51,071 nt of DNA, taken from contig MNZR01000016.1 of NCBI GenBank assembly GCA_001873705.1, positions 1-51,071 on the forward strand, in the 5' to 3' direction. The stretch is from Syntrophobacteraceae bacterium CG2_30_61_12. Lineage in GTDB: Bacteria > Desulfobacterota > Syntrophobacteria > Syntrophobacterales > DSM-9756. Numbering within the stretch: the stretch's first letter is position 1; every line of letters begins with the position of its first letter. Under the pieces are notes generated by a model. It did no database searches and was not told the origin of the DNA. It saw only the letters and a list, made by a program, of their open reading frames with translations. A program made the position numbers and the translations under genes. This document shows, in pieces, positions 4,892 through 22,700 of the stretch.

Positions 4892-5668
4892 ATGAAAGTT
4901 GTGATCTTCGCGGGAGGAATCGGAACGCGGATTTCGGAAGAATCCCACCTCAAACCAAAACCAATGATTGAAATCGGCGGAAAGCCTATTTTGTGGCACA
5001 TCATGAAAATATACGAGAGCCAGGGATTCAATGACTTCATCATTTGCCTAGGCTACAAGGGGTACATTATCAAGGAATATTTCCTGAATTATTATCTTTA
5101 CAATTCTGATGTGACCATCAATCTCCAAACCAACAGCCATGAAGTCCACCGGTCCAACTGTGAGAATTTCCGCATCACCCTGGTAGACACGGGCCTCTTG
5201 AGCGGCACTGCCGGACGTTTGAAGCGAGTAGAACGCTACATCGACAATCACGAGTTCATGCTCACGTATGGTGACGGGCTTGCGGATGTGAATCTGAACG
5301 AACTCCTGGCGTTTCATCGTGCTCGCGGAAAGATCGCCACGGTAACCGCTGTACAACCAGCCGGTCGGTTCGGTCTATTGGGAGTGGACGAAGCCGAGCG
5401 GGTCACGTGTTTCAATGAAAAACCTCTTGGAGACGGGGGCTGGATCAATGGCGGTTTTTTCGTGCTGAAGTCCGAGGTGTTTTCTTTCCTGCCGGAAGAC
5501 TCCGATCAGAAGATGTGGGAACAGGATCCCCTGGAAAACCTGGTTCTCGGTCATGAACTCGTTTCTTACAAGCACCACGGTTTCTGGAAATGCATGGATG
5601 CCTTGCGAGACAAGGAGGAGTTGGAAAGACTCTGGCAGTCGGGGCAGGCTCAATGGAAGACATGGTGA
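4892..5668 (+). CDS. rfbF: Glucose-1-phosphate cytidylyltransferase
   Basis: MKVVIFAGGIGTRISEESHLKPKPMIEIGGKPILWHIMKIY is the characteristic RfbF/DdhA N-terminus. Length is 258 aa. Confidence 0.9.
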   Translation: MKVVIFAGGIGTRISEESHLKPKPMIEIGGKPILWHIMKIYESQGFNDFIICLGYKGYIIKEYFLNYYLYNSDVTINLQTNSHEVHRSNCENFRITLVDTGLLSGTAGRLKRVERYIDNHEFMLTYGDGLADVNLNELLAFHRARGKIATVTAVQPAGRFGLLGVDEAERVTCFNEKPLGDGGWINGGFFVLKSEVFSFLPEDSDQKMWEQDPLENLVLGHELVSYKHHGFWKCMDALRDKEELERLWQSGQAQWKTW

Positions 5669-6771
5669 TGAACCGCGCTTTTTGGAAGGGGAAGTCGGTT
5701 TTCCTGACCGGTCATACTGGTTTCAAGGGCAGCTGGTTTTCCTTGTGGCTGCAACATTTGGGAGCTTGTGTTTCCGGCTATGCGCTGGCTCCGGAGAGCG
5801 GGGAGTGCCTGTATCATCAGGCTAGAGTGGGCGAGAGGTTGCACACGACCTACGGTGATGTGCGCGATGGTGAAAGGCTACACACCGCGATCACCTGGGC
5901 CAAACCCGAGATAGCCCTGCATTTTGCGGCACAACCGCTGGTGCGCGCATCCTACCAAAATCCAGCCTATACTTTTGCGGTCAACGTGATGGGAACGGTC
6001 AATTTCCTGGAAGCCATACGCCGAACGCCATCGGTTCGGGTGGCGGTAGTGGTCACCAGCGACAAGTGCTACGAAAATCGAGAATGGCGGCGGGGCTATC
6101 GTGAGAGCGACCGAATGGGCGGCAGTGATCCCTACTCATGCAGCAAAGGGTGCGCGGAACTGGTGACATCCGCGTATCGCCGTTCCTTTTTCGAAAATGG
6201 TCGGGTGGCGGTGGCCACGGTGCGGGCCGGGAACGTGATGGGCGGTGGGGACTGGGCTGAGGATCGGCTGGTTCCTGACCTGGTGCGCGCATTTGCCGGT
6301 GGCCGCATGGTGAAGCTGAGATATCCGAAGGCGGTGCGACCGTGGCAGTATGTTCTCGATCCGCTTCGCGGCTATATGATGTTGGTCCAACACCTGTGGC
6401 AGGCTGGAGCGACCTATTCAACCGCCTGGAACTTCGGCCCCGGGGACGAGGCTGCCTTTACTGTCGAGGACGTGGTCCGGGAAGCAGCAGGTCGCTGGGG
6501 ACCTGGAGCTTCCTGGGATGTGGATAGATCCTCTCAGCCCCGTGAAAGCCAGCACCTGAAACTTGACTGCTCCCAGGCTTGCTCTCAGTTGGGCTGGATA
6601 CCCCTGTTCGAGTTGGAAACCGCCCTGGATTGGACCCTATCCTGGTATTTGGCCCATCATTCGGGAAACGCGGACATGCGCGCCTTTTCGCAGGCGCAGA
6701 TCGCGGCATATGAAGACCTGTTGGCGGTTGCTCCAGGTCAAACCGAAAGCTGCCGAAGGAGATCGGCGTGA
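5662..6771 (+). CDS. rfbG: CDP-glucose 4,6-dehydratase
   Basis: [24 protein letters not shown] and YSCSKGCAE (YxxxK). The start is ambiguous (ATG at 5653, 5662 or 5668) and overlaps the rfbF stop. Confidence 0.9.
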
Positions 6772-8117
6772 GCGACCTGCGAGAAAAGATGCTTAGGCAG
6801 CAGGCCATTGAAGCGGCTATTGCGCATTATCAGCATGCTCATGGGCGGACCAGCAAGTTCCTTCCCGGGGATCGTGTTCCTTATGGCGGCCGCATTTTCG
6901 ACGCGGATGAGATCGCCAATTTGGTGGACGCATCGCTTGATTTCTGGTTGACGACCGGTCGCTATAGCGAAAGGTTCGAGGGCGAATTCGCCGACTTTCT
7001 CGGTGCTAGGTATTGTTCCCTCACCAACTCTGGATCATCGGCCAATCTGCTCGCTTTTATGGCGCTCACTTCACCAAAGCTTGGCCGACGACGCATCAAC
7101 CCCGGAGATGAGGTGATCACCGTGGCTGCCGCGTTTCCCACCACCGTCGCACCCATTATTCAATATGGGGCTATACCCGTTTTTGTTGATGTCTCGCTCC
7201 CCACTTACAACATCGACGTCGCTTTCCTCGAGTCCGCATTATCCGCAAAGACAAAAGCGGTCATGATCGCCCACACCCTCGGGAACCCCTTTGATCTCGA
7301 GACCGTATCAGCATTTTGCAGACAGCATGATCTCTGGCTCATCGAAGACAACTGCGACGCTCTGGGGGCTCGATATTTCCATGATGGGCACTGGCAATTC
7401 ACCGGGACCTTGGGACATCTCGGCACCTCCAGTTTCTATCCCGCGCATCATATCACGATGGGTGAGGGAGGAGCCGTTTACACCAACGACCTCCAACTGA
7501 AAAAACTAATAGATTCCTTCCGCGACTGGGGCAGGGATTGCTGGTGCCCATCGGGAAAGGACAACACTTGCCGACATCGATTTGAGCAGCGATTCGGTGA
7601 ACTCCCACCCGGATATGATCACAAGTATGTCTACTCGCATTTCGGGTACAACCTCAAGGTCACAGAGATGCAGGCAGCCATTGGCTGCGCTCAACTGCGG
7701 AAGCTTCCGTCTTTTATTTCCCGAAGACAGACCAATTGGCAGTTGCTGCATGCCGGTCTTTATGACATGCAGGACGTTTTCATTCTTCCCCAAGCGACAG
7801 CGAGTTCCGATCCCTCGTGGTTTGGCTTTCTCATTACCATAAAGGACGGCAAGCTCTTCAACAGGCATCAGATAATCAGCCACTTGGAAGAAAAAGGCAT
7901 TCAAACCAGAATGCTGTTTTCGGGCAATCTGCTCAAGCATCCTTGTTTCGATTTGATGCGTGGAACCAACACGGGTTATCGTGTGGTCGGAGACCTTGAG
8001 GTTACCAACCGGATCATGCGCGATTCATTCTGGATTGGAGTCTATCCCGGGTTGAACGATGAAATGATTGCCTATGTTGTTGCGGCGATCCTTGAATACG
8101 TGGAGTCACGGAGATGA
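6768..8117 (+). CDS. rfbH: CDP-4-keto-6-deoxyglucose 3-dehydrase (E1-type, PMP/[2Fe-2S]), DegT family
   Basis: DegT fold. [14 protein letters not shown] has His where aminotransferases carry the Schiff-base Lys. Cys cluster [12 protein letters not shown] (CxCx7C) is present. Length is 449 aa. Confidence 0.85.
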
Positions 8118-8731
8118 TGAAGGTCACCGAAAGCTCCATTCCCGGCTGTTACGAGATCATTTCTCGAGTTTTCCGAGACAATCGAGGGACGTTCGTCAAG
8201 ACATTCCATCACGACATGTTTCTAGAACATGGCCTGACCACTCAATGGAGGGAAGAATACTACTCCGTCTCGCACCACGGTGTTTTGCGGGGACTCCATT
8301 TTCAACTTCCTCCCCATGATCACGAAAAGCTCGTGTACTGCATCGCCGGACGGGTGTTGGATGCCGTGGTAGACCTGCGCAAGGGCTCGCCAACCTTCGG
8401 CCGGCATGTTTTGCTGGAGCTGGATGCAGGGAAAGCAAACATGCTCTATGTCCCCCGGGGGCTTGCCCACGGGTTTTACGTTCTCAGTGACTCAGCAATT
8501 TTGATCTACAAGGCTTCCTCCGTTCATGCACCCGAGCACGATACCGGTATTCACTGGAACACCGCTGGAATTTCATGGCCGGACAAGACTCCTCTGACGT
8601 CGCCACGGGACAATCAGTTTAGCTCATTGGATTGTCTGGATTCCCCTTTCATCTTTCATCAGGGTCAGGCAACGGGCAAACGAAGAAATCGTTCCACCGC
8701 CGGCATTGGCACTGATAACGCATATCGTTGA
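8114..8731 (+). CDS. RmlC-like cupin sugar-nucleotide 3,5- (or 5-) epimerase
   Basis: IPGCYEI...FRDNRGTF...GLHFQ...[10 protein letters not shown] matches the dTDP-4-dehydrorhamnose epimerase fold. The start overlaps the rfbH stop. Confidence 0.7.
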
Positions 8732-8810: not shown

Positions 8811-9695
8811 ATGAAGATCCTCTTGACGGGAGCGACAGGATTTCTTGGATCTCGTCTAGCGACTCATCTCCATCGAGCGGGTCATTCGGTCTGCTACCTG
8901 CGCCGTCCTCAGTCTGTCGTGGCAAGGGAGGTGGCTCACCTCCCGGCCTATGTAGTTGAGCCGGATGGGTCCGGTATTCGAGAGGCATTGACTGAGGTTA
9001 GTCCCCATGTGGTGGTGCATTTGGCTGCCCACTACGTCGCCGAGCATCGCTTTGAAGATATCGAAGCCCTGGTGAGCAGCAACATCCTCTTCGGCAGCTA
9101 TCTCTTGGAGGCCATGCGCCTGGCAGGAGCCAAACACCTGGTCTACGCGGGCACCTCCTGGCAGCATTATGAGGGCGCCGAGTATCGGCCCGTGAACCTT
9201 TATGCGGCGACGAAACAGGCATTTTCAACACTCGCGGATTACTATCGCGACACAACGGAGATGCGGATCCTGGAATTACACCTCTACGACCTCTACGGTG
9301 AAGGCGATACAAGGCCTAGGCTCTTGAACCAACTGCAGTCCGCCGCCGACTCAGGAACGGAACTGGCGATGTCGATGGGGGAGCAGCGCATCCATCTGGT
9401 TCATGTGGATGATGTGAGCCGAGGCTTCGCCATGGCCTGCCGGCAGGTCCGGCAACAGGCTGCGGGCGAGCGTAGAGTATACCGACTGCCGTCATTACGA
9501 TCAGTCTCTTTGCAGGAACTCGTTGCAGCCTTCAGTGCCGTTAATCCCCATCTGCCTGCCAGGGTCGCGTGGGGCAAGCGGCCTTACCGTGCGCGCGAAG
9601 TGTTCCTCCCCTGGGATGGCCAGGAAATCCTACCGGACTGGGTTCCACGCATCGGACTGCAAGAGGGTTTGCGATGGTTCCGAGGATGCCGCTGA
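8811..9695 (+). CDS. NAD(P)-dependent SDR sugar-nucleotide 4-reductase/epimerase
   Basis: MKILLTGATGFLGSRLATHL Rossmann motif and YAATKQAFS (YxxxK). Size and position resemble CDP-dideoxyhexose synthases (RfbJ/RfbS/AscF class). Confidence 0.7.
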   Translation: MKILLTGATGFLGSRLATHLHRAGHSVCYLRRPQSVVAREVAHLPAYVVEPDGSGIREALTEVSPHVVVHLAAHYVAEHRFEDIEALVSSNILFGSYLLEAMRLAGAKHLVYAGTSWQHYEGAEYRPVNLYAATKQAFSTLADYYRDTTEMRILELHLYDLYGEGDTRPRLLNQLQSAADSGTELAMSMGEQRIHLVHVDDVSRGFAMACRQVRQQAAGERRVYRLPSLRSVSLQELVAAFSAVNPHLPARVAWGKRPYRAREVFLPWDGQEILPDWVPRIGLQEGLRWFRGCR

Positions 9696-9884: not shown

Positions 9885-11135
9885 ATGTCGGAAAGATGTC
9901 AATATGAGTCGGGGGTGACAGTTCCTACTTTAACGCTATTTAAAACCAGCACGATGCGAACGGATGATGTGATGGGAAAGAATCATTACAAAGAAATAAA
10001 AACGATCTTGAATCATTGCAGGAATAATCGCGGTGACCAAGAGATCGTTTCCGCGCTTTCCGAAAACCGTATTTATATTTACGGAGCTGGAAATGTCGGT
10101 ACCGCGGTTTGTAAGCTGTTGCACGATGCTGGAATTGAGACAGAAGCTTTCTTGGATAGGAATTGCAACAGTGGAGCAATGCATCTGAATAAGAATATTT
10201 ACCAAATGGATTACCTTGATGCATTTACGTTCAACAAAAATACGGACTATATAATAATATCATTCATCGCGAGTCTTGCGGAAATGAAAGCAATAAAAAA
10301 TATTTTGAATGGAAAAGGATTTAAGAATGTAATACATTTCTATGATATTTATAGATTGTTGATAACTAATCGGCTGGCTCTCAAGAGTTCTAGTGCTTTT
10401 TTTGTTGCAACCGACGTTCTAATCGATTTCGATGAGATAATGGACAGAGTGTTGATGTCAAGCGAATTATGGCAAGACGAAATAAGTAGTAAGACATATC
10501 TTGACTTTGTCAGCGTAATATCGTCAGCAAATCCTGACCTATTTTCTCCAATGATTTGTCAGCAACAGTATTTTGTCAAGGACATCTTTTTTAATAAAGG
10601 CTACCTTCGGTTCATTGACTGTGGCGCCTATGAAGGGGATACGGCTGCCGCACTTGCAGCAAATACAGCGACGGCACGAGCCATTGTGTGCTTTGAGCCT
10701 GATCCACAGAATTTTATCAACCTTTGCACAGCAATGAGAAAGCAAAGAGTGGCGAACGAACAGATTTTGTTCCCCTGTGGCGTCTGGCATCGGAGCGAAA
10801 TGGTCCGCTTTCGGTCAGGAACCATGAGCACCAGTATGATCTCGGAAATCGGCGATAGGTATATCCAGTGTGTGGCGATAGACGATGTTGTTCCCGACTT
10901 CAAACCCACGTTTATCAAGATGGACGTCGAGGGGGCCGAGTACGAAGCGCTGCGAGGGGCACGGAAGACCATCAAGGAGGTTACGCCTGATCTTGCCATC
11001 AGTGTTTATCACCGGGTCGAACATATGTGGGAAATCCCACTTCTTCTGAAAAGCGAGCATGCTGACTATGCTTTCTATCTCAGAAATCACGGGCGGCATG
11101 GCGTGGAAACCGTAATGTATGCCACTTCACTCTAA
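9885..11135 (+). CDS. FkbM-family methyltransferase with N-terminal Rossmann-like domain
   Basis: IYIYGAGNVGTAV in the N-domain; FIDCGAYEGDT and FIKMDVEGAEYEALRGA in the FkbM core. Start is uncertain (ATG at 9885, 9954 or 9975). The gene is AT-rich. Confidence 0.7.
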   Translation: MSERCQYESGVTVPTLTLFKTSTMRTDDVMGKNHYKEIKTILNHCRNNRGDQEIVSALSENRIYIYGAGNVGTAVCKLLHDAGIETEAFLDRNCNSGAMHLNKNIYQMDYLDAFTFNKNTDYIIISFIASLAEMKAIKNILNGKGFKNVIHFYDIYRLLITNRLALKSSSAFFVATDVLIDFDEIMDRVLMSSELWQDEISSKTYLDFVSVISSANPDLFSPMICQQQYFVKDIFFNKGYLRFIDCGAYEGDTAAALAANTATARAIVCFEPDPQNFINLCTAMRKQRVANEQILFPCGVWHRSEMVRFRSGTMSTSMISEIGDRYIQCVAIDDVVPDFKPTFIKMDVEGAEYEALRGARKTIKEVTPDLAISVYHRVEHMWEIPLLLKSEHADYAFYLRNHGRHGVETVMYATSL

Positions 11136-11180
11136 GATTCTTGTACCATTTGTTTAACGAAATACAGGTTGGGGGTTGCG

Positions 11181-12767
11181 ATGAGAGACTACATAAGAAA
11201 ATTACTATTTATTGTACCTCCGGTTTCACCAGGAAATGGAGCGATTTCAAGAAATCTTGCTAGTTACAATGAAATACCTTTTGGTGTACTTTCTTTGGCT
11301 ACTTATATAAATAAATATTGCAGCAAAACTGTTAATATTAATATCTTAGATTTCAATGTTTCTAATGATTTAGCCTTTGTTGATAAGATAAAGAAAACCA
11401 TGGAGCAATTCAAACCCGATATAGTGGGGATCTCAGGGCTGTTTAACTCTATGTTTAGTTATGTAAACGAATTTTCCCGTTATGTAAAAGAAATTAATCC
11501 TAGTCTCGCGCTGGTCGTCGGCGGAGCTATTGCTACAAACTGCTATGAGTTGCTATTTAGTCACAACCCGTATATTGATGGTGCGTGCTATGCCGAAGGA
11601 GAGATTCCAATGCGCCTGCTCGTCGATGCGGAGAATCCCTTTTCACTTTTGGAAGGGCATCCATCCTGGATCACGAGAAAAAAAATATCCTCGGGTGTTA
11701 CTCCCAGTCCCACATTCATCCAGGATCTCGATGAGATCCCTCCGATCAATTATGCAATGGTAGATCTTGAAAAATACGACTCGCGGTGCCGGAATAACAA
11801 CCCGATCAAGCATGAAGCAGAAGACACCGCCGTCCGACTTCCGTTCGTCACGACAAGAGGATGCCCTTTCAATTGCATTTTTTGTGCGGCGAACTCCCTT
11901 TCAGGCAGAAAGGTAAGGTTCATGAGCGCTGAAAGGGTCATTTCCGATATCAAAAGAGCAAAAGAGCAATACAAGATGACCAAACTGGTGATTAATGATG
12001 ACCAGGTACTCATCGACAAGAAAAGGATCAAGAAGATTCTCGATGAAATCTCCGATTTTAATCTAATTGTCGAGTTTCCGAGTGGATTGAACGTCAAGTT
12101 CATCGATGAAGATATTGCCGTGAGATTGAAGCGAGCAGGGCTTGAAGTGGCCAATCTTGCGGTTGAGTCAGGTTCTGATCATGTATTGAAGAAAATCATT
12201 GACAAGCCGTTAAAAACTGCTGATATCAAGCCAGCAGTAGATGCCCTTAGGAAAAATGGTTTACTTATACATGGCTTTTTTATCTTCGGGTTTCCTGATG
12301 AGAGTGAAGATGACCGTATAATGACTATTGATCTGATCAAGGAAATTGGATTCGACTGGTCAAATATTTATGTTGCTGCACCCCTTATGGGGAGTAGGCT
12401 TTACCAGATTTTTCTGGAAAATGGCTATATAAAAGACGAAATCAACTTTCTGGATGCCAACATATATCAATCTAGCCTACGGTCGTCAGAAGATATCGGC
12501 AAATACGTCTATCGGGTGAACCTTGATGTGAATTTTGTAAACAATTACCGTATGAGAGTCGGCGATGATCAATTGGCTGAGGGTTATTTTAGTAATGTGG
12601 TGAATAACCACCCTCGCCATGCCTTTGGACATTACTGTCTTTCCATGGTGTACCAACGTCTTGACCACGATAACTATCGGAGTGGCAAACACATGAGGGA
12701 ATTCCATGAGATCGTCGCAACTGATGATGAATGGGCTGATCATGCTAGATACTTCAATCTCATCTGA
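11181..12767 (+). CDS. B12-binding-domain radical SAM enzyme (class B)
   Basis: N-terminal cobalamin-binding-like region (DIVGISGLF...VVGGAIATN) followed by TTRGCPFNCIFCA (CxxxCxxC). The gene is very AT-rich. Confidence 0.8.
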   Translation: MRDYIRKLLFIVPPVSPGNGAISRNLASYNEIPFGVLSLATYINKYCSKTVNINILDFNVSNDLAFVDKIKKTMEQFKPDIVGISGLFNSMFSYVNEFSRYVKEINPSLALVVGGAIATNCYELLFSHNPYIDGACYAEGEIPMRLLVDAENPFSLLEGHPSWITRKKISSGVTPSPTFIQDLDEIPPINYAMVDLEKYDSRCRNNNPIKHEAEDTAVRLPFVTTRGCPFNCIFCAANSLSGRKVRFMSAERVISDIKRAKEQYKMTKLVINDDQVLIDKKRIKKILDEISDFNLIVEFPSGLNVKFIDEDIAVRLKRAGLEVANLAVESGSDHVLKKIIDKPLKTADIKPAVDALRKNGLLIHGFFIFGFPDESEDDRIMTIDLIKEIGFDWSNIYVAAPLMGSRLYQIFLENGYIKDEINFLDANIYQSSLRSSEDIGKYVYRVNLDVNFVNNYRMRVGDDQLAEGYFSNVVNNHPRHAFGHYCLSMVYQRLDHDNYRSGKHMREFHEIVATDDEWADHARYFNLI

Positions 12768-13941
12768 GCACAGCGGGGTTAGCTGCCGCAAGGTGGCTGC
12801 TGCAAAGGACACCCTCTGCCGTGCCATAGCTCTTGAAGAGCCTGTTCCAGACGGCATCGCTCAGCTTGCCGGGCATCCGATATTCATCTACGGTGCGGGC
12901 AATTACGGTCGTATCATATACAGCCTGCTCACCCAAAATGGAATTCCCTCCCCTGCCATTCTTGGGTTTCTTGACATGGCGGCCACCGAAAACAGTACTC
13001 TGTCAAGCCTTCCCGTGTACCAACCGCATGCTTCATGCGTTACCAGGGCATTACGAAAAGAGGCGCAGGTGGTAATTTCAATTTATTCCAGCCTTGCGGA
13101 ACACGCCGCCATCATCGCATCGCTCCATGGCATGGGATACCGGAACGTCCGAAGTGGGTATGAAACGGCGCTCTCTTTTCACACGGCCAACGATCCGTCC
13201 ACCCGCATTGCGGAAACCGGTTTTCTTCGTGCAAGCCTGGCAAACATCATGCGAGGCTCCCAATTTTGGGAAGACAACCGTAGCCTTGAGACGTACGTGA
13301 ACCATTTTGTAGGGTATGCCCGATGTGATTTGGACAGTTTCGTCGTTGAAACCGATCACCGGCAGTACTTTCCGCCTTCGCCCCTGCGGGTCAAGGGAGA
13401 CATGCGATTTATCGATTGTGGGGCGTTCGACGGCGATACCATCCGTGATCTTCTCGAATACTCAGGGAAGGTGGAGAGCCTCGCCCTCTTCGAGCCATCC
13501 GCACGGAACTTCCAGAAGCTTACAACCTACGTGCGAGAAAACGAAGGAGATATCGCAGAGCAATTGACGCTTTTCCCTTGTGGTGTTTGGGACAGTACGG
13601 AGCGGCCATGTTTCGACGGCACTGCACTCTCGGCAAGTGCCATCTCGAATCGCGGTGACGAGTTCATCCAATGTGTTGCGATCGACGATGTTCTTCACGG
13701 CTTCAGCCCGACCTGCATCAAGATGGACATCGAAGGAGCCGAGCTGCATGCGCTCCGAGGCGCGGAAGAGACTATCAGGCAGTGCAAGCCCGATCTGGCT
13801 ATCAGCGTCTACCACTCACTCTCCCACTTGTGGGAAATCCCGGATCTCATCCGTCAATGGGTTCCAGGATACCGATTTTTTCTTCGCACTTATGGTTCCG
13901 CAGGCTTTGAAACGGTAATGTATGCCGTTGATACTGATTGA
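12742..13941 (+). CDS. FkbM-family methyltransferase, paralogue of 9885..11135
   Basis: Same architecture as the paralogue: IFIYGAGNYGRII, FIDCGAFDGDT, CIKMDIEGAELHALRGA, AISVYH. Start is uncertain (ATG at 12706/12742, or GTG at 12793). Confidence 0.7.
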   Translation: MLDTSISSEHSGVSCRKVAAAKDTLCRAIALEEPVPDGIAQLAGHPIFIYGAGNYGRIIYSLLTQNGIPSPAILGFLDMAATENSTLSSLPVYQPHASCVTRALRKEAQVVISIYSSLAEHAAIIASLHGMGYRNVRSGYETALSFHTANDPSTRIAETGFLRASLANIMRGSQFWEDNRSLETYVNHFVGYARCDLDSFVVETDHRQYFPPSPLRVKGDMRFIDCGAFDGDTIRDLLEYSGKVESLALFEPSARNFQKLTTYVRENEGDIAEQLTLFPCGVWDSTERPCFDGTALSASAISNRGDEFIQCVAIDDVLHGFSPTCIKMDIEGAELHALRGAEETIRQCKPDLAISVYHSLSHLWEIPDLIRQWVPGYRFFLRTYGSAGFETVMYAVDTD

Positions 13942-13959
13942 CAGCAGGGGAGATAAAAC

Positions 13960-14982
13960 ATGAATGCAATAAAAGTGGCAGGTGCAGGTTATCAACGCAG
14001 GGAGCTAAGGCAATGGCTTCCTCTCACAACTCCCTTTGCGTTGCATCTCTTTCCCTCTCACTACTGTAACTTCAGATGCGCGTACTGCGTCCACGGTCTT
14101 CCAGCCGATAAGATAAGGTCCATGGGGTCCAAAAAGACAATTATGGATGTTAACCTATTTGAAAAGTGCATCACCGATGTCCTGAACTTCCCGGAACGCT
14201 TACAGGTTTTAATCTTCGCCGGGTGGGGAGAACCGTTGACTCACCCTAATATTGTGGAAATGGTTGAATTGGCAAAACGTAATGACGTCGCCAAACGAAT
14301 AGAAATTGTGAGTAACGGTGCGATGCTGACGAACGATCTCTCGAAAAAACTTATTGAAGCAGGGCTAGATCGTATTCGAATATCGATTCAGGGGCTAGAT
14401 TCTGTGAGATGCAGTGACGTTGCCGGAGTCAATGTCAACTTCGAGTCTCTTCTCGACAATATCCGGTACTTCCACGCGAACCGCAAAAACGCCAGAATTT
14501 TTGTAAAGACCGTCGACGCTGCGGTGCCGACTGATGCCGATCGTCAAATATTCCATGGAATCTTCGAGGGAATTTGTGATGAGATCGCTGTTGAACAGGT
14601 AATCCCGGTTATAAAAGGCATCGACCACTCAAGATTCGGTAGTGAATTCAACAAGCGACATTGTGGCGGCTTGGCCGTCCCAGTCGCCGTATGCCCATTT
14701 CCGTTCTACATGTCCGTGGTCCATCCCGACGGCAGCTATGCTCCATGTTGCTCGTCCGAACTTCCTTTGCCCCTTGGAAACGTTGGAGATACTTCCATCA
14801 CCGAGATCTGGAACGGAGAAGCCCTGTGGAGATTTCGCGTCACTCATCTTAAGGGAACTCGAGGTGGCGCCACCCTGTGCCGCAGGTGTCCGCGCCCGCA
14901 ATACGATATTCAGGAAGGAGACGATCTTGACCCGTATGCCGGCGAACTGCTTTCCGCTTACCAACGTCTAGCGCATATTTAA
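13960..14982 (+). CDS. Radical SAM/SPASM-domain enzyme, paralogue 1
   Basis: SHYCNFRCAYC (CxxxCxxC), GWGEPL, and a C-terminal Cys-rich region CPFPFYMSVVHPDGSYAPCCS...CRRCPRP. Confidence 0.8.
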   Translation: MNAIKVAGAGYQRRELRQWLPLTTPFALHLFPSHYCNFRCAYCVHGLPADKIRSMGSKKTIMDVNLFEKCITDVLNFPERLQVLIFAGWGEPLTHPNIVEMVELAKRNDVAKRIEIVSNGAMLTNDLSKKLIEAGLDRIRISIQGLDSVRCSDVAGVNVNFESLLDNIRYFHANRKNARIFVKTVDAAVPTDADRQIFHGIFEGICDEIAVEQVIPVIKGIDHSRFGSEFNKRHCGGLAVPVAVCPFPFYMSVVHPDGSYAPCCSSELPLPLGNVGDTSITEIWNGEALWRFRVTHLKGTRGGATLCRRCPRPQYDIQEGDDLDPYAGELLSAYQRLAHI

Positions 14983-14993
14983 AAGGATACGCC

Positions 14994-16010
14994 ATGAGTG
15001 CCGAAATTAAACCCGGCTTCAATTATGACAGAAAGAAACTGGCAGACATTATCCCGCTTAAAACCCCATTTACGTTCCTACTCGCCCCCTCTCACGTATG
15101 CAACCTGAGGTGTTTTTACTGTTCTCAAGCAAAAGATCGCGAAGATCTCATCAAGGATGGCTTTCGCTTCAAGTTGATGGACTACGACGTCTTTCTCAAG
15201 TTCGCCAAACAGTTGAAGCGGTTTCCCGATAGGCTCAAACTCGTTTTCGTCTCCGGCATGGGCGAACCCTTGATGCACAAACGTCTTCCCGACATGATTG
15301 CACGACTCCGGAACTTGGATGTGGCCGAACGCTTGGAAATATTCACGAACGGCCTGCTCTTGACCAAAGAAACCAGCGAAGCCCTTGTTGACTCGGGACT
15401 CACCCGAATTCGCGTTTCGTTGCAAGGGTTAACCTCCAAAAAATACAAAGAGATATCGAGTGCTGACATTAGCTTTGAGGACCTGCGCCACAACCTTGCG
15501 TATTTTTTCAAGGTACGTAAGCAGTGCAAACTTTATGTGAAAGTAATCGATGTGGCTCTGGAACCGGGCGAGGAGGATAAGTTCTACGATATGTTCCGGG
15601 ATGTCAGCGATGAAATGTTCATTGAACGCTTCGTTCCCTATCAACTGACAATGGGGGACTATGACAATGCCGCCGGTGTTACGACAACCGTGTACGGCGA
15701 CAAGATTCTTAGTGCTGATGTCTGTCCCGAGCCCTTCTTCAATTGGCAAATCGACGTCGATGGCAACATCTACCCTTGTTGTCCCCTTGGGCTACCCAAA
15801 TCCTTTTCCGTCGGCAACGTTAACCACTCAACGATCTTCGACATGTGGAACGGCGAGAAGGCACGGCAGCTGCGACTCCAACTGCTCGGTAAGCAGCGTT
15901 CAGCACACTATGTCTGCGGAAGCTGTCGAGTCTTTCTGTCGAAGCTGACTCCCGCCGACCGGCTCGACGACGATGCCGACAGGCTGATCCCCCTTTTTGA
16001 AAAACTGTAA
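14994..16010 (+). CDS. Radical SAM/SPASM-domain enzyme, paralogue 2
   Basis: SHVCNLRCFYC, GMGEPL, CPEPFFNWQIDVDGNIYPCC...CGSC. Collinear with paralogue 1. Confidence 0.8.
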   Translation: MSAEIKPGFNYDRKKLADIIPLKTPFTFLLAPSHVCNLRCFYCSQAKDREDLIKDGFRFKLMDYDVFLKFAKQLKRFPDRLKLVFVSGMGEPLMHKRLPDMIARLRNLDVAERLEIFTNGLLLTKETSEALVDSGLTRIRVSLQGLTSKKYKEISSADISFEDLRHNLAYFFKVRKQCKLYVKVIDVALEPGEEDKFYDMFRDVSDEMFIERFVPYQLTMGDYDNAAGVTTTVYGDKILSADVCPEPFFNWQIDVDGNIYPCCPLGLPKSFSVGNVNHSTIFDMWNGEKARQLRLQLLGKQRSAHYVCGSCRVFLSKLTPADRLDDDADRLIPLFEKL

Positions 16011-16023
16011 GGAGTGATGTCAG

Positions 16024-17043
16024 ATGAAAGCCGAAATTAAGCCGATCGCCGACCTCAATCGCGTGAGGCTCGCCGATGCCGTCCCCCTGAAGACGCCATT
16101 CGCGCTGTACCTCTTTCACACGAACATCTGTAATTTCAGGTGCACCTTTTGCGCGCACAGTCTGGGGCGCGAAGGGATGAAACGGGAGTATGGCTTTGTG
16201 CCTGAAGTCATGCCGATGGAGGTGTTCGAACGCACCATCGAACAGATGAAAGCCTTTCCTCGCAAATTCAAATTTGTCTCCTTTACCGGCCAGGGAGAGC
16301 CTCTGACCAACAAGCGTCTTCCTGACCTGGTCATGCGCCTGCGGAAGGCCGAGGTTGCCGATGTCACCGAAGTCATCACCAACGGAGCGCTGCTGACCCC
16401 AAAGATCAGCAGGGCGCTCATCGACGCAGGACTGGATCGGATGAAGATTTCAATCCAGGGTATCAATACCCAAGCCTATAAGACTATCACGGGGGTGAAT
16501 GTCGATTTCGACAAATTTGTCGAGCAGGTGCGCTTTCTCTACGAGCGGAAAGGAATGATGCAGCTTTTCGTCAAGGTCATGAACATCTCCCTTGCTCCTG
16601 GCGAAGATGAAAAATTCTACAAGATCTTCGGCGAAATATCGGACCGCATGTATATCGAGACTTGTCGTCCAGTGTACCCTGGCGTCGACTATGGAGACAG
16701 GAGTGAAGATGTAACCATGGACCGTTTCGGACGCCAGCATGATAAACGTTTGGTCTGCCCCCTCTGCTTTTTCCACCTCGCCATCTGGCCCAATGGCGAC
16801 GTCGTTCCGTGCGATACGATCCTCAAGCCTATCGTCCTGGGCAATGTCAATGACAAACAGATGACGCTGAAAGACATGTGGAATGGCCGGGCACACCGTG
16901 AGTTCTGCGCGATGCAACTTCGTAAGGAGCGCATGATCTCCAATCCGCAGTGCACTAGGTGCATTGCCCCGGATGACGTTTGTCACCCTGAGGATGCCTT
17001 AGACATCGATGCTGAAAAGATACGGACATCGTACTATCAGTAA
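16024..17043 (+). CDS. Radical SAM/SPASM-domain enzyme, paralogue 3
   Basis: TNICNFRCTFC, GQGEPL, CPLCFFHLAIWPNGDVVPCD...CTRC. Collinear with paralogues 1 and 2. Confidence 0.8.
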   Translation: MKAEIKPIADLNRVRLADAVPLKTPFALYLFHTNICNFRCTFCAHSLGREGMKREYGFVPEVMPMEVFERTIEQMKAFPRKFKFVSFTGQGEPLTNKRLPDLVMRLRKAEVADVTEVITNGALLTPKISRALIDAGLDRMKISIQGINTQAYKTITGVNVDFDKFVEQVRFLYERKGMMQLFVKVMNISLAPGEDEKFYKIFGEISDRMYIETCRPVYPGVDYGDRSEDVTMDRFGRQHDKRLVCPLCFFHLAIWPNGDVVPCDTILKPIVLGNVNDKQMTLKDMWNGRAHREFCAMQLRKERMISNPQCTRCIAPDDVCHPEDALDIDAEKIRTSYYQ

Positions 17044-17150
17044 TTGGGAACAGGGCAAACCATGTCGAAAAGCGGCTTTTGGGATGGACTGCAAGGAGAG
17101 AAGGGCTTCGTTAGCCGAATCACGATTCAGCTAGCATGGGTATATTCGTC

Positions 17151-18449
17151 ATGACAAGAATACTTCATATTACAGCCCATCTTGGCGGGGGCGTTGGGAA
17201 GGTGCTTTCTCGGCTTTGTGGAAAATCAGTGCGGCCGCGAAGTGATGTTCAGCATACCATCATATGCATGGAACATCCGCAAAAGTCCGAATTCAGGGAT
17301 TACGTCCTGGCCAGTGGTTCTGAGTTATTGGTCTGTCCTTCAAGCGGTTTACTCAACCGTCGAGTCGCCGAAGCTGACATCGTTCAGGTGGAATGGTGGC
17401 ACCACCCCGTTGTGGCGGGCTGGCTTTGCGCAGGGGTGTTGCCTCCCATGCGGTTGGTGGTGTGGAGCCATGTCTCCGGGCTTCATCCGCCCGAAATTCC
17501 GCTGGGGTTCCTGCTGGCTCCTCATCGTTTTCTTTTTACCTCCCCCTGTTCCTGGGAGCATCCCCGGATTATTGGACTCGATGGTGAACAACGGCATAGA
17601 ATCGATGTTGTGCACAGCTCCGGTGGCTTCGAAGATTTATCGGAACGCTGCGCAGCACCGCGAGATGGCCCCATTCGCGTCGGATATGTGGGGACTCTCA
17701 ATTTCTCCAAGCTCCATCCTGAGCTTCTGGATTTCTTGGAGGCCGTGCCCTTGCCCAAGTTTCGACTGACTCTTGTAGGTGATCTAACAGCAGGCGAGCA
17801 ACTGATTTCCCGCGCTGCCTCCAGACATTTGACCGACAGACTCGAGTTGCCCGGTTACAAGGCCGATGTAGCCACTGAACTTGCCCGCTTCGATGTGTTG
17901 GCCTACCTTTTGAATCCCCTCCACTACGGCACCACGGAAAATGCCCTGCTGGAGGCCATGGCTATGGGGGTGGTGCCGGTGGTTCTGAATAACCCGGCAG
18001 AGCGGCATCTGGTCACGCATGGAGAAACCGGTCTCATAGTAGATTCCCCAGCAGCCTTTGCCGAAGCGCTGGTGTTTCTGGAGGATCACCCTGACAAGCG
18101 TAACATACTGTCCGCCAATGCAAGCGTTGATGTGCGTGAGCGTTTCGCGTTGCAGCGCACGATCTCGCTGCTCGAAACTCACTACCGAGCAGTTTTGGAG
18201 GAGCCGAAACGGGTGTTCGACTTCCGGTCGGTATTTGGGGGCAGGCCTTCCGATTGGTTCCTTGCCTGCCAGGGATCGCAAGTCTGGCGATTCAAGGGCA
18301 ACAAAAAACACATGGAGCTCACCGGAAAGAGTAGCAGGGGGCCTCATTACCTTTACGAAAAGACCAAGAGCTCCGTATTCCACTACCATCACACCTATCC
18401 GCATGACAGACAGCTGGAGTCCTGGGCGCAAAACCTGGAGGCAAGATAG
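17151..18449 (+). CDS. GT4 (GT-B) family glycosyltransferase
   Basis: MTRILHITAHLGGGVGKV N-terminus and TENALLEAMAMGVVPVV (Ex7E region). Confidence 0.75.
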   Translation: MTRILHITAHLGGGVGKVLSRLCGKSVRPRSDVQHTIICMEHPQKSEFRDYVLASGSELLVCPSSGLLNRRVAEADIVQVEWWHHPVVAGWLCAGVLPPMRLVVWSHVSGLHPPEIPLGFLLAPHRFLFTSPCSWEHPRIIGLDGEQRHRIDVVHSSGGFEDLSERCAAPRDGPIRVGYVGTLNFSKLHPELLDFLEAVPLPKFRLTLVGDLTAGEQLISRAASRHLTDRLELPGYKADVATELARFDVLAYLLNPLHYGTTENALLEAMAMGVVPVVLNNPAERHLVTHGETGLIVDSPAAFAEALVFLEDHPDKRNILSANASVDVRERFALQRTISLLETHYRAVLEEPKRVFDFRSVFGGRPSDWFLACQGSQVWRFKGNKKHMELTGKSSRGPHYLYEKTKSSVFHYHHTYPHDRQLESWAQNLEAR

Positions 18450-18492: not shown

Positions 18493-19695
18493 ATGATTCT
18501 AAGGCGCGCAGAGGGTCTTGACCTTCTGGACGGAATCATTGCTGCACAATTCTCTGATATTTCCCTTATTCACTGGATGTCGCCCATGCAAAGCCACGGA
18601 TTGGGAATGAGTGAAGAGCAACAGCCCCATATCTTTCCAAAGGTGGATGTCATTGTCCCTACCTATGATTACGGTCATTATCTGAATGCCTGTCTGGCAT
18701 CGATTAGAGCCCAAACCTATGCCGACTATTCCGTCCTGATCATCGACAATGCATCCGAAGACGATACTGAAAAGATCGCCAGGCACTGGCAGAACAGGGA
18801 TTCCCGCTTTCGTTATGTTCGCAACGATACCAACCTCGGACTGATGGCCAGTGTTCTGAAGGCCTACGCGCTCACCCGGGCTGAGTTGGTTCTTTTTTTG
18901 TCCGCGGACGATTTGCTTGAGCCCCGGTTCCTGGCACTTGCGGTTGGGGCACTCGATCAACATCCCGAATGCACATTTGCCTACAGCGCATGGAAAATGT
19001 TCGTTGATGATCCCGGGAGTCAAAACCATGGTGCGGAATACCGCTATTTCTCTCCGCATGATTGCAGTGGTTGCTATGATGAAGCAGCATTGCTGCTGGC
19101 TCACAACTGGATCACCAACTCGTTCACTCTCTTCCGCCGAGAGGTTTGTGATGCCGTAGGGGGGGTTAATCCTACCGACCTGCAGCATGTTGGTGACTGG
19201 TACACTTGGATGCTGTTTTCTGCGAAGGGTCCGGCCTGCTATATCCACGAGAGACTTGGGCGGTATCGAATACATGCCAACACGGAAACAAACCGGTTGG
19301 TCGCCAATTACCGGTCCGGTTACGATCATATTCGCTTTTACGACCTCATCTTCGAATCGGAGCTTTGGCCCATGCCGATCCGCTTGGCTGCCAAAGCGCA
19401 TCAAAGCCGATGGCTGACAGGCGAACCCCTGACGCTCATCGCCCGAAAGATGGGTGGTGAGCGAGCCGAGCCCTTGATGCGACATTTCGTAAGCAGGTAT
19501 CGCGATGCATTCTATGTGGCCATCGCTCAGAGTGTTCTCCAGTACACGCCCAGCAAGAATTTCCTGGATACTCCGGAAAATGCGCTGGCCCTTCTGCGAG
19601 AAGTGTTGCTTCACGATTCAAGCAATGCGCAAGCGGCTATGCTGTACCAATCCTATCGTGGACAAGGTCGATCCAAAGGGCTGTTGATCACGTAG
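18493..19695 (+). CDS. GT2 family glycosyltransferase
   Basis: VDVIVPTYDYGHYLNACLASIRAQTYADYSVLIIDNASEDDT. The start may be an internal ATG (18577 or 18607). Confidence 0.75.
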   Translation: MILRRAEGLDLLDGIIAAQFSDISLIHWMSPMQSHGLGMSEEQQPHIFPKVDVIVPTYDYGHYLNACLASIRAQTYADYSVLIIDNASEDDTEKIARHWQNRDSRFRYVRNDTNLGLMASVLKAYALTRAELVLFLSADDLLEPRFLALAVGALDQHPECTFAYSAWKMFVDDPGSQNHGAEYRYFSPHDCSGCYDEAALLLAHNWITNSFTLFRREVCDAVGGVNPTDLQHVGDWYTWMLFSAKGPACYIHERLGRYRIHANTETNRLVANYRSGYDHIRFYDLIFESELWPMPIRLAAKAHQSRWLTGEPLTLIARKMGGERAEPLMRHFVSRYRDAFYVAIAQSVLQYTPSKNFLDTPENALALLREVLLHDSSNAQAAMLYQSYRGQGRSKGLLIT

Positions 19696-19766
19696 GTGTT
19701 CTTGATGAGTTGTTATGCGCGCAGTCGTGTTGAACGAGAAACTACACCTTAGATACGAGTACCGCC

Positions 19767-22700
19767 GTGAACAAATTGATCCAACTGAGAAATGCTAGAA
19801 CGACCGGGCGCCATTGGGGCGAAGCGAACAACGAACGCGAGTTCGCCACATTCTCATGTGATCATCCGAATCAGGCTGGTGCGCATATTCGGCAGATTTC
19901 GTCCCATGCCAGTAAATACGTCACCATTGTGATACCGGTTCATGATGCTTTGGATTTGACTCGAACCTGTGTCAACTCTATTTATACTAATACTCCCTGC
20001 GGGACTTACCAAATCATTATTGTGGATAATGGGTCAACGCATGGCGTGCGAGGCCTTCTCGACACGAGGAATACATCCGAGTCCATCAGGGTGATTCGGA
20101 ATCGGGAGAACTTGGGATTCGCCAAGGCCTGCAATCAAGGCATCCGGAGCGCTCGGGGGCACTTTGTTCTACTGCTCAACAATGATACTGTCGTGACCGC
20201 GGGATGGCTGGACGCATTGCTTGTGGAGATGGAACAAAACAAAAAGGTTGGCATTGCGGGATCCTGTTTGCTCTATCCCGGCAGCACCCGGATCCAGCAT
20301 GTTGGAGTTTCGGTGGGATGGCACAACGGTGTCCTGTTTCCATACCACGTTCATAGGCTGCGTAAGGTTGAGCATGTTCCGGATGCCCTCCGAAGTCGCA
20401 AGCTGAAAGCCGTAACAGGTGCCTGCATGCTTGTGCGGCGTGAAATACTCGATGTGGTGCCCGGATTCGACGAAATTTATCTGAATGGCTACGAGGATAT
20501 CGACTTCTGCTTTCAAGCCTTGAAAGCGGGTTTTGACATTCACTATTGCGGTAAGAGCCAAGTATACCACCATGAGTCGATGTCGAAGGGGCGGCACGAT
20601 CGCGACGGGGAAAATCTTTGGAGGTTGAATAAGAAATGGAATGGGATCGTCGAACCGGACGAAGACGAAATGACAACGCATGCAGCCCTACGCGAGATTG
20701 CGGCACGTGAAGAATTGCAAAGAAATCCTGACAGCTACAAGTGCATATCGATGCTTCAGGGTATCTCTCTCGAGCGCGGCGACTATGACGAGGCCCGTGA
20801 ATGCAGAATGGGAAGACTCCCTGCCGTGCCCGTCGTCACCATTGTTATTCCCACCTACAATAATCTGGCGCTCACAACCCAGTGCCTCAAATCGATTCGC
20901 GATACAACTTCCGGCATCCCTTTTGAGATTATTTGCGTTGACAATGCTTCCAGCGACGGCACGGTCGAGTTTCTCAAACGTGAAGAATCTCTGAACAAGT
21001 TGGTCCTGGTCAGCAACGGGCAGAATCTGGGTTTTGCCAAGGCCTGTAACCAGGGCGCCAAGCTCGCGTTGGGAAAATACCTTGTGTTTCTCAACAACGA
21101 CATCATAGCCTTGGACGGTTGGTTACGGGAAATGCTCAAGTGCATGGATGGCGATGCCAGTGTCGGGATGGTCGGGAGCAAACTTCTGTATCCGCAAGGA
21201 ACAGTTCAACACGCCGGAGTCGCTTTTGGAGAAGACGGTATACCTTTCCACATATATCGTTTTGCGGATCCCGAGGCTGCCTATGTGAACAGGACACGCG
21301 AGTTGTCCGCTGTCACCGGGGCGTGTTTCCTCGTCCGGCGAGAGGTATTTTCGAAGTTGGGCGGTTTTGATGAGAAATACGAGAACGGCTTGGAGGACAT
21401 TGATTTTTGTCTTCGCATTAGAGAACAAGCACTGAGGATTCTGTACTGCCCGACAAGCGTCCTCTATCACATGGAAAGTGTATCGGAGGGGAGATTTAAT
21501 AAGACATTGGATAACTGTCGTTATTTCTCCGCGAAGTGGGGAAGGGGACTCAATGCGGATGATGAGAGAATATGCGCGGAGGACGGCACGGACATCCGGC
21601 GAATTCGTCATCTTGAGGCTTCCATGCGCCAGGGCATGGGGTATTCCCGGAAAACCGTCATCGACTATAGGATCGATTCCACGCCCCTGTGCGAGCAACT
21701 CACGGCGAGTCGCGATTTGACCACACCAAATCCCTCGTCGAACAAGGCTTCTTTGCTGTCCATTGTTATCCTGTCACTGAATCAGTCGGAATGGACCCGG
21801 GCATGTCTGGAAAGCATTAGGAAGCACAGCACCTTGCCTTACGAAATCATCCTGGTGGACAACGGATCGTCAAGCCGGACCATCAGCGCTCTCCTGGATT
21901 TCACCGTTAATGATCCACGTATTTCCGTCATTCTCAATGCTCGAAACAAGGGGTTTGCCGGGGGCAACAATCAGGGGATGGCCCTGGCCCAGGGCGATTA
22001 CATCTTGTTGCTCAACAATGACACGCTGGTTACCGCGGAATGGCTGGAAGGCCTGGTGAAGGTCTTCGCGGATTATCCCAAGGTCGGCATCGTGGGGCCC
22101 ATGTCGAATCATGTTGCGGGCCCGCAGCTAGTGGAGAGCGCCCGATACGGGAATATCACGGAAATGGAAGCCTTTGCGTCGCGCTGGCGGAAGGACAATT
22201 GCGGCACAACCTTTTCCGTTCCGGCCGTTATAGGATTTTGCATGCTCGTAAGACGGCGAGTGATCGATGCAATTGGCGGACTGGATGAACTTTTCGGTGT
22301 AGGGAATTTTGAGGACATCGATTACTGCTATCGAGCTTTCCTTGCGGACCACGAAATCCGGGTTGCCCGTGATGTCTTTATCCATCATCAGGGCAGTCTC
22401 ACTTTCAAGGCTGAAAATGTCGACTACGTCAGGTTGATGAAGAAGAACTGGGAACTCTTCAAGGCGAAATGGGGTCTGGATCCCGGTCTTGCCCTTGCCA
22501 GGGGACAGAGGACTGTTGTGCTCAATAAGGAACGGGCGCTGCGACAAACGATTGCTCTTCCTGATCTTCGGGAAACCCACGAGTACGACGCGGAAATGAA
22601 GCTCTGGCGTGGCAGATCAACCAAGGCGTACCCCTTGAACAAGACCGGGAGAAAGGCGGGGCTCCCGGTTGAGCGCGAGTCTCGCGGTGGAATTGCCACC

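Follow-up and report, generated by a model that had tools for sequence, protein, structure and literature searches.

A conserved trio of twitch-type radical SAM enzymes within a CDP-sugar and flagellar gene cluster of a Syntrophobacteraceae bacterium

Few radical S-adenosylmethionine (SAM) enzymes that act on carbohydrates are known (BtrN, DesII, BlsE, AprD4 and SpeY/HygY), and nearly all of them come from antibiotic pathways. BtrN, BlsE and DesII work on carbohydrates or nucleotide sugars, which are small soluble substrates, and among the class B cobalamin radical SAM enzymes GenK and GenD1 are sugar C-methyltransferases of gentamicin biosynthesis. Here we describe radical SAM genes of a sugar cluster in a 51,071-nucleotide stretch of DNA from Syntrophobacteraceae bacterium CG2_30_61_12 (contig MNZR01000016.1, positions 1 to 51,071), referred to below as the window. 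A long run of plus-strand genes crosses the window, and within it six consecutive open reading frames (ORFs) at 9885–17043 stand directly behind the genes for a cytidine diphosphate (CDP)-dideoxyhexose, namely those of RfbF, RfbG, RfbH, an RmlC-like epimerase and a short-chain dehydrogenase/reductase (SDR), as the original prediction, made from the sequence of this DNA, had stated. The last three of the six encode paralogous radical SAM enzymes that we call TwA, TwB and TwC, together the Tw trio. We propose, with a probability of roughly 0.55, that these six genes make up the tailoring half of a pathway for a flagellin-glycan sugar, in which the Tw proteins would act as O2-independent, hydrogen-abstracting enzymes on a 6-deoxy- or 3,6-dideoxyhexose derived from CDP-glucose. 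The six genes are as follows.

9885..11135 (likely start 9972), plus strand: FkbM1, a two-domain FkbM-family methyltransferase with an N-terminal Rossmann-like domain followed by the FkbM domain (PF05050, E 5e-17; TIGR01444, 81.1 bits, cut-off 37.7).
11181..12767, plus strand: a B12-binding radical SAM enzyme of class B type, putative C-methyltransferase (PF02310, E 1e-16, 60.8 bits; PF04055, E 2e-20, 74.3 bits).
12706..13941, plus strand: FkbM2, a paralogous two-domain FkbM methyltransferase (PF05050, E 3e-14; TIGR01444, 65.2 bits, cut-off 37.7; weak PglD_N match, 22.4 bits).
13960..14982, plus strand: TwA, a twitch-type radical SAM enzyme, of the orthogroup with an invariant Cys-Cys (263–264) and His95.
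14994..16010, plus strand: TwB, a twitch-type radical SAM paralogue.
16024..17043, plus strand: TwC, a twitch-type radical SAM paralogue with Asp at the position of TwA Cys264.

Starts of the first two genes follow the gene calls (9972 and 11181) on the identical public contig, which stems from a groundwater metagenome; the longest ORFs begin at 9885 and 11169. A Pfam and TIGRFAM check with PF04055, PF13186, PF02310 and PF05050 on the six proteins found every domain that had been predicted.

The Tw proteins are 338–340 amino acids (aa) long and share 33–38% mutual identity, and each matches both the radical SAM model PF04055 (E 1e-16 to 1e-20) and the SPASM model PF13186 (E 1e-11 to 1e-20). 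The CX3CX2C motif of the radical SAM superfamily (Cys36, Cys40 and Cys43) is invariant in the three paralogues and in 86 homologues. Beyond it only four cysteines are conserved in this set (245, 263, 307 and 310 in TwA numbering), and in a phmmer alignment they coincide with the CxxC-containing C-terminal twitch region of BtrN. Despite the Pfam match, the seven-cysteine SPASM motif (CX9-15GX4C...CX2CX5CX3C...C) is absent from the Tw proteins, which have no CX5CX3C extension. Because only four extra cysteines are conserved, and because these align with the twitch region of BtrN, we assign the trio on its motifs to BtrN-like twitch enzymes, predicted to carry one auxiliary cluster each, and we reject the full SPASM class for it. 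Thus the description of these genes as three paralogues of about 340 aa with SPASM- or twitch-like cysteines holds for size, paralogy, domains and the twitch alternative but not for SPASM in the strict sense. The three paralogues also differ from one another in a consistent manner. Next to cluster ligand Cys263, 100% of TwA sequences have Cys264, whereas most TwB sequences have Pro there and 87% of TwC sequences have Asp; His95 of TwA is Asn in TwB and TwC. All share a conserved N-terminal segment, R-x2-L-x4-PL-x2-P.

Structure prediction provides further insight into the relationships of the trio. An AlphaFold (AF2) model of TwA built from 86 homologues has a pLDDT (predicted local distance difference test) of 96 and a pTM (predicted TM-score) of 0.93, and its top fold matches in the PDB are BtrN (4m7t; E 1.5e-13, TM-score 0.71 on the target), BlsE and DesII, which rank above the peptide maturases SuiB, SkfB and EpeE and above anSME and MoaA. 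By sequence the closest solved protein is again BtrN (E 1.5e-9, via the C-terminal cluster domain), followed by PqqE, the radical SAM protein 5wgg, MoaA, DesII and BlsE. The model therefore points to a separate family on the structural plan of BtrN, BlsE and DesII.

SPASM enzymes are mainly known for maturing peptides, and it is therefore necessary to consider whether the trio could be SPASM-type maturases of RiPPs (peptides synthesized ribosomally and modified after translation), of proteins, or of a cofactor. Such a role could draw on the Pfam SPASM match and on the top partial NCBIfam matches, which are to maturase families (TIGR04317, 78–94 bits, a tungsten-cofactor oxidoreductase maturase family that gives the best match; PqqE and others). 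However, the best score of 94 bits compares with a cut-off of 380 and covers the radical SAM core only, and the Tw proteins reach no curated NCBIfam family, whether of peptide maturases or other: the scores are 33–35 against a cut-off of 450 for DesII, 38 against 400 for BlsE, 30–33 against 349 for anSME and 39–56 against 381 for PqqE, in a listing that holds no BtrN-specific family. The single auxiliary-cluster motif also speaks against this role. In the Tw proteins the Pfam matches are confined to the radical SAM and SPASM models, with no RiPP recognition element (RRE)/PqqD domain, and neither Pfam nor the TwA model shows an extra domain able to bind a leader peptide. No conserved small ORF that could encode a precursor peptide is found near the trio in 38 related loci, where no such family is common to more than two near-identical loci. 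The flagellin encoded in the window has no Cys in its translation (31854–32699), as had been noted, and the gene context is one of carbohydrate genes throughout. Placement in a known peptide-maturase family together with a conserved adjacent precursor gene, the outcome that the original prediction had named as counting against it, was looked for, and neither a family nor a precursor gene emerged. We reject a peptide-maturase identity for the trio, on the lack of a precursor, the lack of an RRE domain and scores below every family cut-off, and regard maturase activity of any of these kinds as very improbable. The expectation that the substrate is a nucleotide sugar or the glycan is supported by the BtrN, BlsE and DesII folds, by the lack of an RRE domain and precursor, by the setting among CDP-glucose and glycosyltransferase genes, and by the gene fusion described below.

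The distribution of the trio indicates that the cassette is not a one-off. A word-indexed search with TwA returns 155 relatives, none functionally named, and an exhaustive search of 1.84 billion representatives of clusters at 50% identity returns 484 at E <= 1e-30. Scanning one genome per species gave 56 loci, 55 of which are counted as independent. Represented are Geobacter, Desulfobacteraceae, Desulfopila, Desulfatiglandales, Synergistales, Selenomonas flueggei, S. noxia, Sporomusa, Heliophilum, Desulfosporosinus, Desulfocucumis, Lachnospiraceae, Oscillospiraceae, Fibrobacter, Scalindua, Azonexus, Rhodocyclaceae and Competibacteraceae. Carriers of the trio belong to many anaerobic or microaerophilic phyla, and the groups spanned include Desulfobacterota, Bacillota (Selenomonas, Sporomusa, Lachnospiraceae and Desulfosporosinus), Synergistota, Fibrobacter, Scalindua and Rhodocyclales. 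Clustering of the family members from these loci yields three orthogroups, which are TwA, TwB and TwC, and all three lie within 10 kb of each other in 45 of the 55 independent loci when genes are assigned by best phmmer hit (a length and overlap filter, which under-counts TwB, gives 34). Where the full trio is lacking, the contig is in most cases short or frameshifted. The genes are usually ordered B-C-A, but A-B-C in the window. Because the triplication is so strictly kept, with consistent differences between the paralogues, it is likely that none of the copies is dispensable, whether they catalyse successive steps or form parts of a complex.

The genes that accompany the trio are listed below with the number of loci in which they occur; as flanks end at 10 kb or at contig ends, these numbers are lower bounds.

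SDR/4,6-dehydratase family: 46 of 56 loci.
Long FkbM protein: 43 of 56.
GT4 glycosyltransferase homologous to that at 17136–18449 of the window: 40 of 56.
RmlC-like epimerase: 37 of 56.
RfbF: 28 of 56.
GT2 glycosyltransferase of about 500 aa: 28 of 56.
RfbH: 19 of 56.
B12 radical SAM enzyme: 19 of 56.

RfbG is also among the usual companions, and in 14 loci a gene for flagellin, FliD or a GT2-TPR protein (TPR, tetratricopeptide repeat) lies no more than 10 kb from the trio. The Tw trio is therefore widespread, strictly conserved, uncharacterised and tied to CDP-glucose-derived sugars. Because RfbH is so often absent, the substrate common to the trio is more probably a CDP-6-deoxyhexose. Our literature search on radical SAM enzymes combined with flagellin glycosylation, nucleotide sugars or twitch domains found no functional description in the paper collection that it covered, the only mention being an unexplained block of genes on a Brachyspira plasmid. 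The view that four radical SAM enzymes in one sugar pathway had not been described thus agrees with this search as far as function is concerned, but several radical SAM genes within a CDP-sugar cluster are not unique to the window.

Less constant genes also recur beside the trio. A protein of 711–748 aa with a weak HAD hydrolase domain adjoins it in nine loci (for example at 6572–8818 of one of them) and on the Brachyspira plasmid, while HD-domain proteins occur in seven loci and CmcI-type O-methyltransferases in six.

A further link is with the GT4-family glycosyltransferase encoded just downstream of twC, the gene of which lies directly upstream of twB in many loci.

17136..18449 (gene call starts 17268), plus strand: GT4-family glycosyltransferase, co-conserved with the trio (PF00534/PF13692).

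In another lineage a natural fusion joins the two proteins. The 775-aa protein P0250 (gene at about 2184–4511 of its contig) consists of a GT4 part and a Tw domain in a single polypeptide, and its GT4 part is homologous over the whole length to the window GT4 (27% identity over 439 residues, E 7e-54). This fusion is present on at least 11 metagenome contigs from different samples, and it contributes the only Tw domain in those loci. Because such a fusion exists, the radical SAM chemistry of the Tw proteins appears to be functionally tied to the GT4 glycosyltransferase.

These observations bear directly on where the trio might act. The gene of GT4 next to twB, its fusion to a Tw domain in P0250 and the many glycosyltransferases of the cluster would all suit enzymes that act after transfer, remodelling sugars on flagellin or on a growing oligosaccharide in complex with GT4, rather than on the free CDP-sugar. 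On the other hand, the structural neighbours BtrN, DesII and BlsE use small soluble substrates, the Tw proteins, at about 340 aa, are compact and show no added domain for binding, and the fusion could equally channel a labile nucleotide sugar to the transferase. We consider action after transfer unlikely, although it is the main live alternative to action on the CDP-sugar. A further proposal is that the trio makes or modifies a non-carbohydrate substituent (acyl, amino-acid-derived or phospho-linked) that is later put on the glycan, the sugar genes being mere neighbours. Genes for HAD, HD, ATP-grasp or PurH-like proteins adjoin Tw paralogues in some related loci, and peptidyl or amino-acid substituents occur on known flagellin glycans, such as that of C. 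difficile type B. However, these accessory genes are variable whereas the constant partners are RfbF, RfbG, the RmlC-like epimerase, the SDR, GT4 and FkbM, and in the window there are no such accessories between rfbF and the glycosyltransferase genes, so we find this proposal distinctly unlikely. We therefore keep a CDP-glucose-derived hexose as the preferred substrate of the Tw proteins.

Upstream of the cassette the window encodes most of a pathway that would supply such a hexose.

4892..5668, plus strand: rfbF/ascA, glucose-1-phosphate cytidylyltransferase, makes CDP-glucose (TIGR02623, 394 bits, cut-off 300).
5668..6771 (start taken from the gene call), plus strand: rfbG/ascB, CDP-glucose 4,6-dehydratase (TIGR02622, 456 bits, cut-off 278).
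6768..8117, plus strand: rfbH/ascC (E1), pyridoxamine phosphate-dependent CDP-4-keto-6-deoxyglucose 3-dehydrase (NF011936, 724 bits, cut-off 423; PF01041).
8114..8731, plus strand: RmlC-like sugar epimerase, with an AscE-like role proposed (PF00908, E 6e-57; TIGR01221, 168 bits, cut-off 156).
8811..9695, plus strand: SDR, probable 4-ketoreductase, with an AscF-like role proposed (PF01370, E 2e-31; reaches no NCBIfam equivalog).

RfbF, RfbG and RfbH/E1 are true equivalogs, all above the NCBIfam cut-offs, with the RmlC-like epimerase and the SDR behind them, and we interpret 4892–9695 as the predicted gene set of an ascarylose-type CDP-3,6-dideoxyhexose pathway, apart from E3. A scan of 4400–18600 for promoters and terminators gave counts at the level of chance (14 against 13.4 and 14 against 14.3), which is uninformative on operon boundaries. 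Just upstream of the glycan cluster, at 518–1545, is a toxin-antitoxin pair of MntA/HepT type.

518–1087: nucleotidyltransferase (Polbeta, PF18765) of the MntA/HepT-type pair.
1084–1545: HepT RNase toxin (NF047751, 65.8 bits, cut-off 60).

From the known enzymology of these families, RfbF would make CDP-glucose, RfbG would dehydrate it at C4/C6 and RfbH, where present, would deoxygenate C3; the RmlC-like enzyme would then epimerise and the SDR reduce the product to give an ascarylose-type CDP-3,6-dideoxy-L-hexose. Relatives without RfbH would instead end up with a CDP-6-deoxyhexose. By analogy with BtrN, DesII and BlsE, each Tw enzyme would cleave SAM reductively, and the resulting 5'-deoxyadenosyl radical would take a hydrogen from a sugar carbon, whether the sugar is still linked to CDP or has just been transferred by the co-conserved GT4. 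Three fates of the substrate radical can be envisaged. The auxiliary cluster could accept an electron to leave a ketone (dehydrogenation, as in BtrN); a hydrogen donor in the protein could return a hydrogen on the opposite face (epimerisation); or a neighbouring hydroxyl could leave (deoxygenation or dehydration, as in DesII and AprD4). Epimerisation has precedents among radical SAM enzymes in NeoN and HygY. Because of its invariant extra Cys264, TwA is speculatively the best epimerase candidate, and the Asp of TwC at the same position may, equally speculatively, serve as a general base. FkbM1 and FkbM2 would O-methylate remaining hydroxyls and the B12 enzyme would C-methylate an unactivated carbon, after which GT4 and the other glycosyltransferases would use the product to build a flagellin O-glycan in the cytoplasm.

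The methyltransferase genes of the cassette have a different character from that of the trio. FkbM1 and FkbM2 share 38% identity and both score above the TIGR01444 cut-off and match PF05050, which places them in the FkbM family. Their N-terminal GxGxxG domain is real, with weak ThiF, 2-Hacid_dh_C and PglD_N matches. An AlphaFold model of FkbM1 (pLDDT 93.8) has as its best fold match PDB 2py6, a solved FkbM structure on which it superposes over 403 columns. FkbM1 has at least 1536 database matches at E <= 1e-10, and of the 120 listed the majority cover at least 90% of its length; its homologues include proteins of Geobacter sulfurreducens, Clostridioides difficile and Caldicellulosiruptor. FkbM identity, paralogy and the N-terminal domain were thus correctly predicted, but we reject the description of that domain as unusual, since the architecture is common among homologues and already in the PDB (2py6). 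The FkbM2 ORF overlaps the 3' end of the B12 gene by 62 nt (12706–12767), and the same start is called on public contigs; the true start codon may lie further downstream.

The B12 enzyme has the architecture expected of a class B (cobalamin) radical SAM enzyme, with the B12-binding PF02310 and PF04055, as had been predicted. It reaches no NCBIfam equivalog, scoring at most 146 bits, with a P-methyltransferase family that has a cut-off of 575; it has at least 823 unnamed homologues; and in the PDB the sequences nearest to it are 9ccb, a protein without a name, and AprD4, a diol dehydratase. From this architecture C-methylation is its likeliest role; methyl transfer is not certain, as AprD4-like members that do not methylate share the same architecture.

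The G+C content is 43% for the FkbM1 gene and 41% for the B12 gene, as against 56% for the window and 50–59% for neighbouring genes. The best database matches of both proteins lie on a single Thermodesulfovibrionales contig, with the order RfbF, RfbG, RfbH-like, a metallo-beta-lactamase-fold protein, FkbM, B12 radical SAM and FkbM. This low G+C content, together with the shared best-match contig and its same FkbM-B12-FkbM order, suggests that the FkbM1-B12 pair was acquired laterally and separately as a methylation add-on. The trio's nearest relative is that of Geobacter sp. UBA6151, where the place of the B12 gene is taken by a class I methyltransferase that weakly matches a sugar C-methyltransferase domain (PF08484). 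Because of the G+C content, the Thermodesulfovibrionales arrangement and this replacement, we conclude that the methylation set is a variable add-on around a constant Tw trio. The gene set of Geobacter sp. UBA6151 (150–12719) is larger: besides this methyltransferase it comprises four FkbM genes and five radical SAM/SPASM genes, together with genes for a PurH-like (AICARFT_IMPCHas) protein and for one of 178 aa that matches no family.

Downstream of the cassette at least eight glycosyltransferase or TPR proteins are encoded before flagellin and FliD are reached, at a distance of about 15 kb; FliF, FliG, FliH and FliI come later still.

18493..31750, plus strand: GT2, a 1302-aa protein with four GT2 domains, TPR protein, GT1-like protein, two GT2-TPR proteins and GT1 (Pfam).
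19767–23675: the 1302-aa protein with four GT2 domains, followed by the TPR protein and the two GT2-TPR proteins.
26676–28451 and 28279–30081: the two GT2-TPR proteins, candidate flagellin glycosyltransferases (their longest ORFs overlap by about 170 nt).
31854..32699, plus strand: flagellin, 281 aa, no Cys, with a Ser/Thr-rich central region; probable glycan acceptor (PF00669 and PF00700).

GT2-TPR proteins have been proposed as flagellin glycosyltransferases (PMC13317340). Pfam finds no flippase, polymerase or priming-transferase domain in the large ORFs scanned between 1.7 and 34 kb. Because of this, of the position of the cluster and of the GT2-TPR proteins, flagellin is the probable acceptor of the glycan. 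Several ORFs of 160–186 aa between fliD and a gene for a 917-aa TPR protein (34300–39100) have no Pfam match.

A related set of genes is found in a pathogen. In a protein search of plasmids, matches occur only on one Azospirillum plasmid and on nine plasmids of Brachyspira hyodysenteriae. The region at 7270–20832 of pBHWA1 (NC_012226.1), within which the published virulence-associated block lies, has seven radical SAM genes, of which five are tandem Tw-family paralogues at 29–34% identity and two are more distant from the family, together with rfbF, an RmlC-like epimerase, an SDR, a GT4-like glycosyltransferase and a 711-aa HAD protein (8406–10541). All five paralogues score best against TwA and so cannot be assigned to separate TwA, TwB and TwC groups. 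Genes 9–18 of this plasmid correspond to BHWA1_02674–02683 (La et al. 2014, PMC4267127). Genes 13–16 (a radical SAM gene, a glycosyltransferase, an epimerase and rfbC) are present in all virulent strains and in no reduced-virulence strain, and the adjacent radical SAM genes 11 and 12 show a looser correlation with virulence, being missing from one virulent strain (La et al. 2014, PMC4267127). The authors assigned no function to the block, which they discussed in terms of lipo-oligosaccharide (LOS) or of surface glycosylation or proteins (PMC4267127). The plasmid virulence marker was still in use in 2025.

Several observations weigh against our proposal that the six genes tailor a CDP-glucose-derived sugar for flagellin. 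Only about one locus in three has RfbH, and the common substrate may therefore not be a dideoxyhexose. In the window itself, no match to E3 (AscD/RfbI), the flavin/[2Fe-2S] reductase that E1 needs as its partner, is found among the large ORFs scanned with Pfam. A 3,6-dideoxyhexose also leaves few positions for three radical steps and three methylations. The similarity of TwA to BtrN, BlsE and DesII is low (16–19% identity, TM-scores of 0.5–0.7), and as the Tw family has no characterised member the type of reaction is guessed by analogy. The case for flagellin as the acceptor comes from the gene neighbourhood, and the related Brachyspira block has been discussed in terms of LOS or surface proteins. 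Finally, the adjacency and fusion of GT4 fit action on the glycan as well as on the nucleotide sugar. It is with these points in mind that we place our proposal little above even odds; that the Tw trio are uncharacterised, carbohydrate-acting twitch radical SAM enzymes, and that the cassette acts on sugars in a way not described before, is supported.

A broader idea, which we put forward tentatively as possible but doubtful, is that TwA, TwB and TwC constitute an unrecognised system shared across phyla for the multi-step, O2-independent rebuilding of a CDP-glucose-derived sugar, by iterative deoxygenation and epimerisation or by C-C bond formation, which would give an undescribed class of sugar on the flagella or surface glycans of anaerobes, and that the related Brachyspira set would explain the virulence block. 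The family occurs in protein-glycosylation clusters, where many anaerobes, oral Selenomonas and gut Lachnospiraceae among them, carry it as an obligate trio. Solving its function would probably bring to light new sugar chemistry and a new monosaccharide, explain a ten-year-old plasmid virulence marker of the pig pathogen that causes swine dysentery, and improve the annotation of several hundred protein clusters now labelled "radical SAM/SPASM protein". The trio is directly testable, since there are several cultured type strains among its carriers and enzymatic routes to the likely CDP-sugar substrates.

The locus can be compared with several known systems. Like the classical asc/rfb pathways to CDP-ascarylose and paratose, the window has equivalogs of RfbF, RfbG and RfbH along with a reductase and an RmlC-like epimerase, all encoded upstream of the cassette. 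E3 reductase belongs to these pathways and none was found among the ORFs scanned in the window; conversely, the classical pathways are without any radical SAM step whereas the window has four radical SAM genes. BtrN, which serves as 2-deoxy-scyllo-inosamine dehydrogenase in butirosin biosynthesis, shares with the Tw proteins the pattern of CX3CX2C and four auxiliary cysteines, and its substrate is a small carbohydrate-like molecule, as we propose for the trio. However, the two are 19% identical, the Tw proteins exceed BtrN by about 90 residues and carry the conserved N-terminal segment, and they occur as three conserved paralogues in CDP-sugar and flagellin-glycan clusters without aminocyclitol genes nearby, whereas BtrN belongs to an antibiotic cluster. 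DesII (TDP-4-amino-4,6-dideoxyglucose deaminase; TDP, thymidine diphosphate) and BlsE (cytosylglucuronate decarboxylase) abstract hydrogen from a nucleotide-linked sugar; they take fold ranks 2–10 for TwA and are weak sequence matches to it, but at 16–17% identity, with TDP or a cytosine nucleoside, in antibiotic pathways and as a single enzyme per pathway rather than a trio. The B12 enzyme resembles GenK and GenD1 in its architecture, B12-binding domain followed by radical SAM domain, and in its carbohydrate-tailoring context; it reaches no curated family, and its nearest PDB sequences are 9ccb and AprD4, as given above.

Two further systems share gene content or setting with the window. A 2026 survey predicted CDP-3,6-dideoxyhexose genes and GT2-TPR flagellin glycosyltransferases in flagellar glycosylation islands of Clostridium (PMC13317340). 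Both features, in a flagellar setting, are shared with the window, but the survey makes no mention of radical SAM genes (PMC13317340), which the window has. The pBHWA1 block consists of the same gene families as the window (rfbF, RmlC-like, SDR, GT4-like and tandem Tw-family genes). It differs in lying on a plasmid of a spirochaete and in having five tandem paralogues with no intact FkbM, no B12 enzyme and no rfbH, whereas the window combines the trio with FkbM, the B12 enzyme and rfbH.

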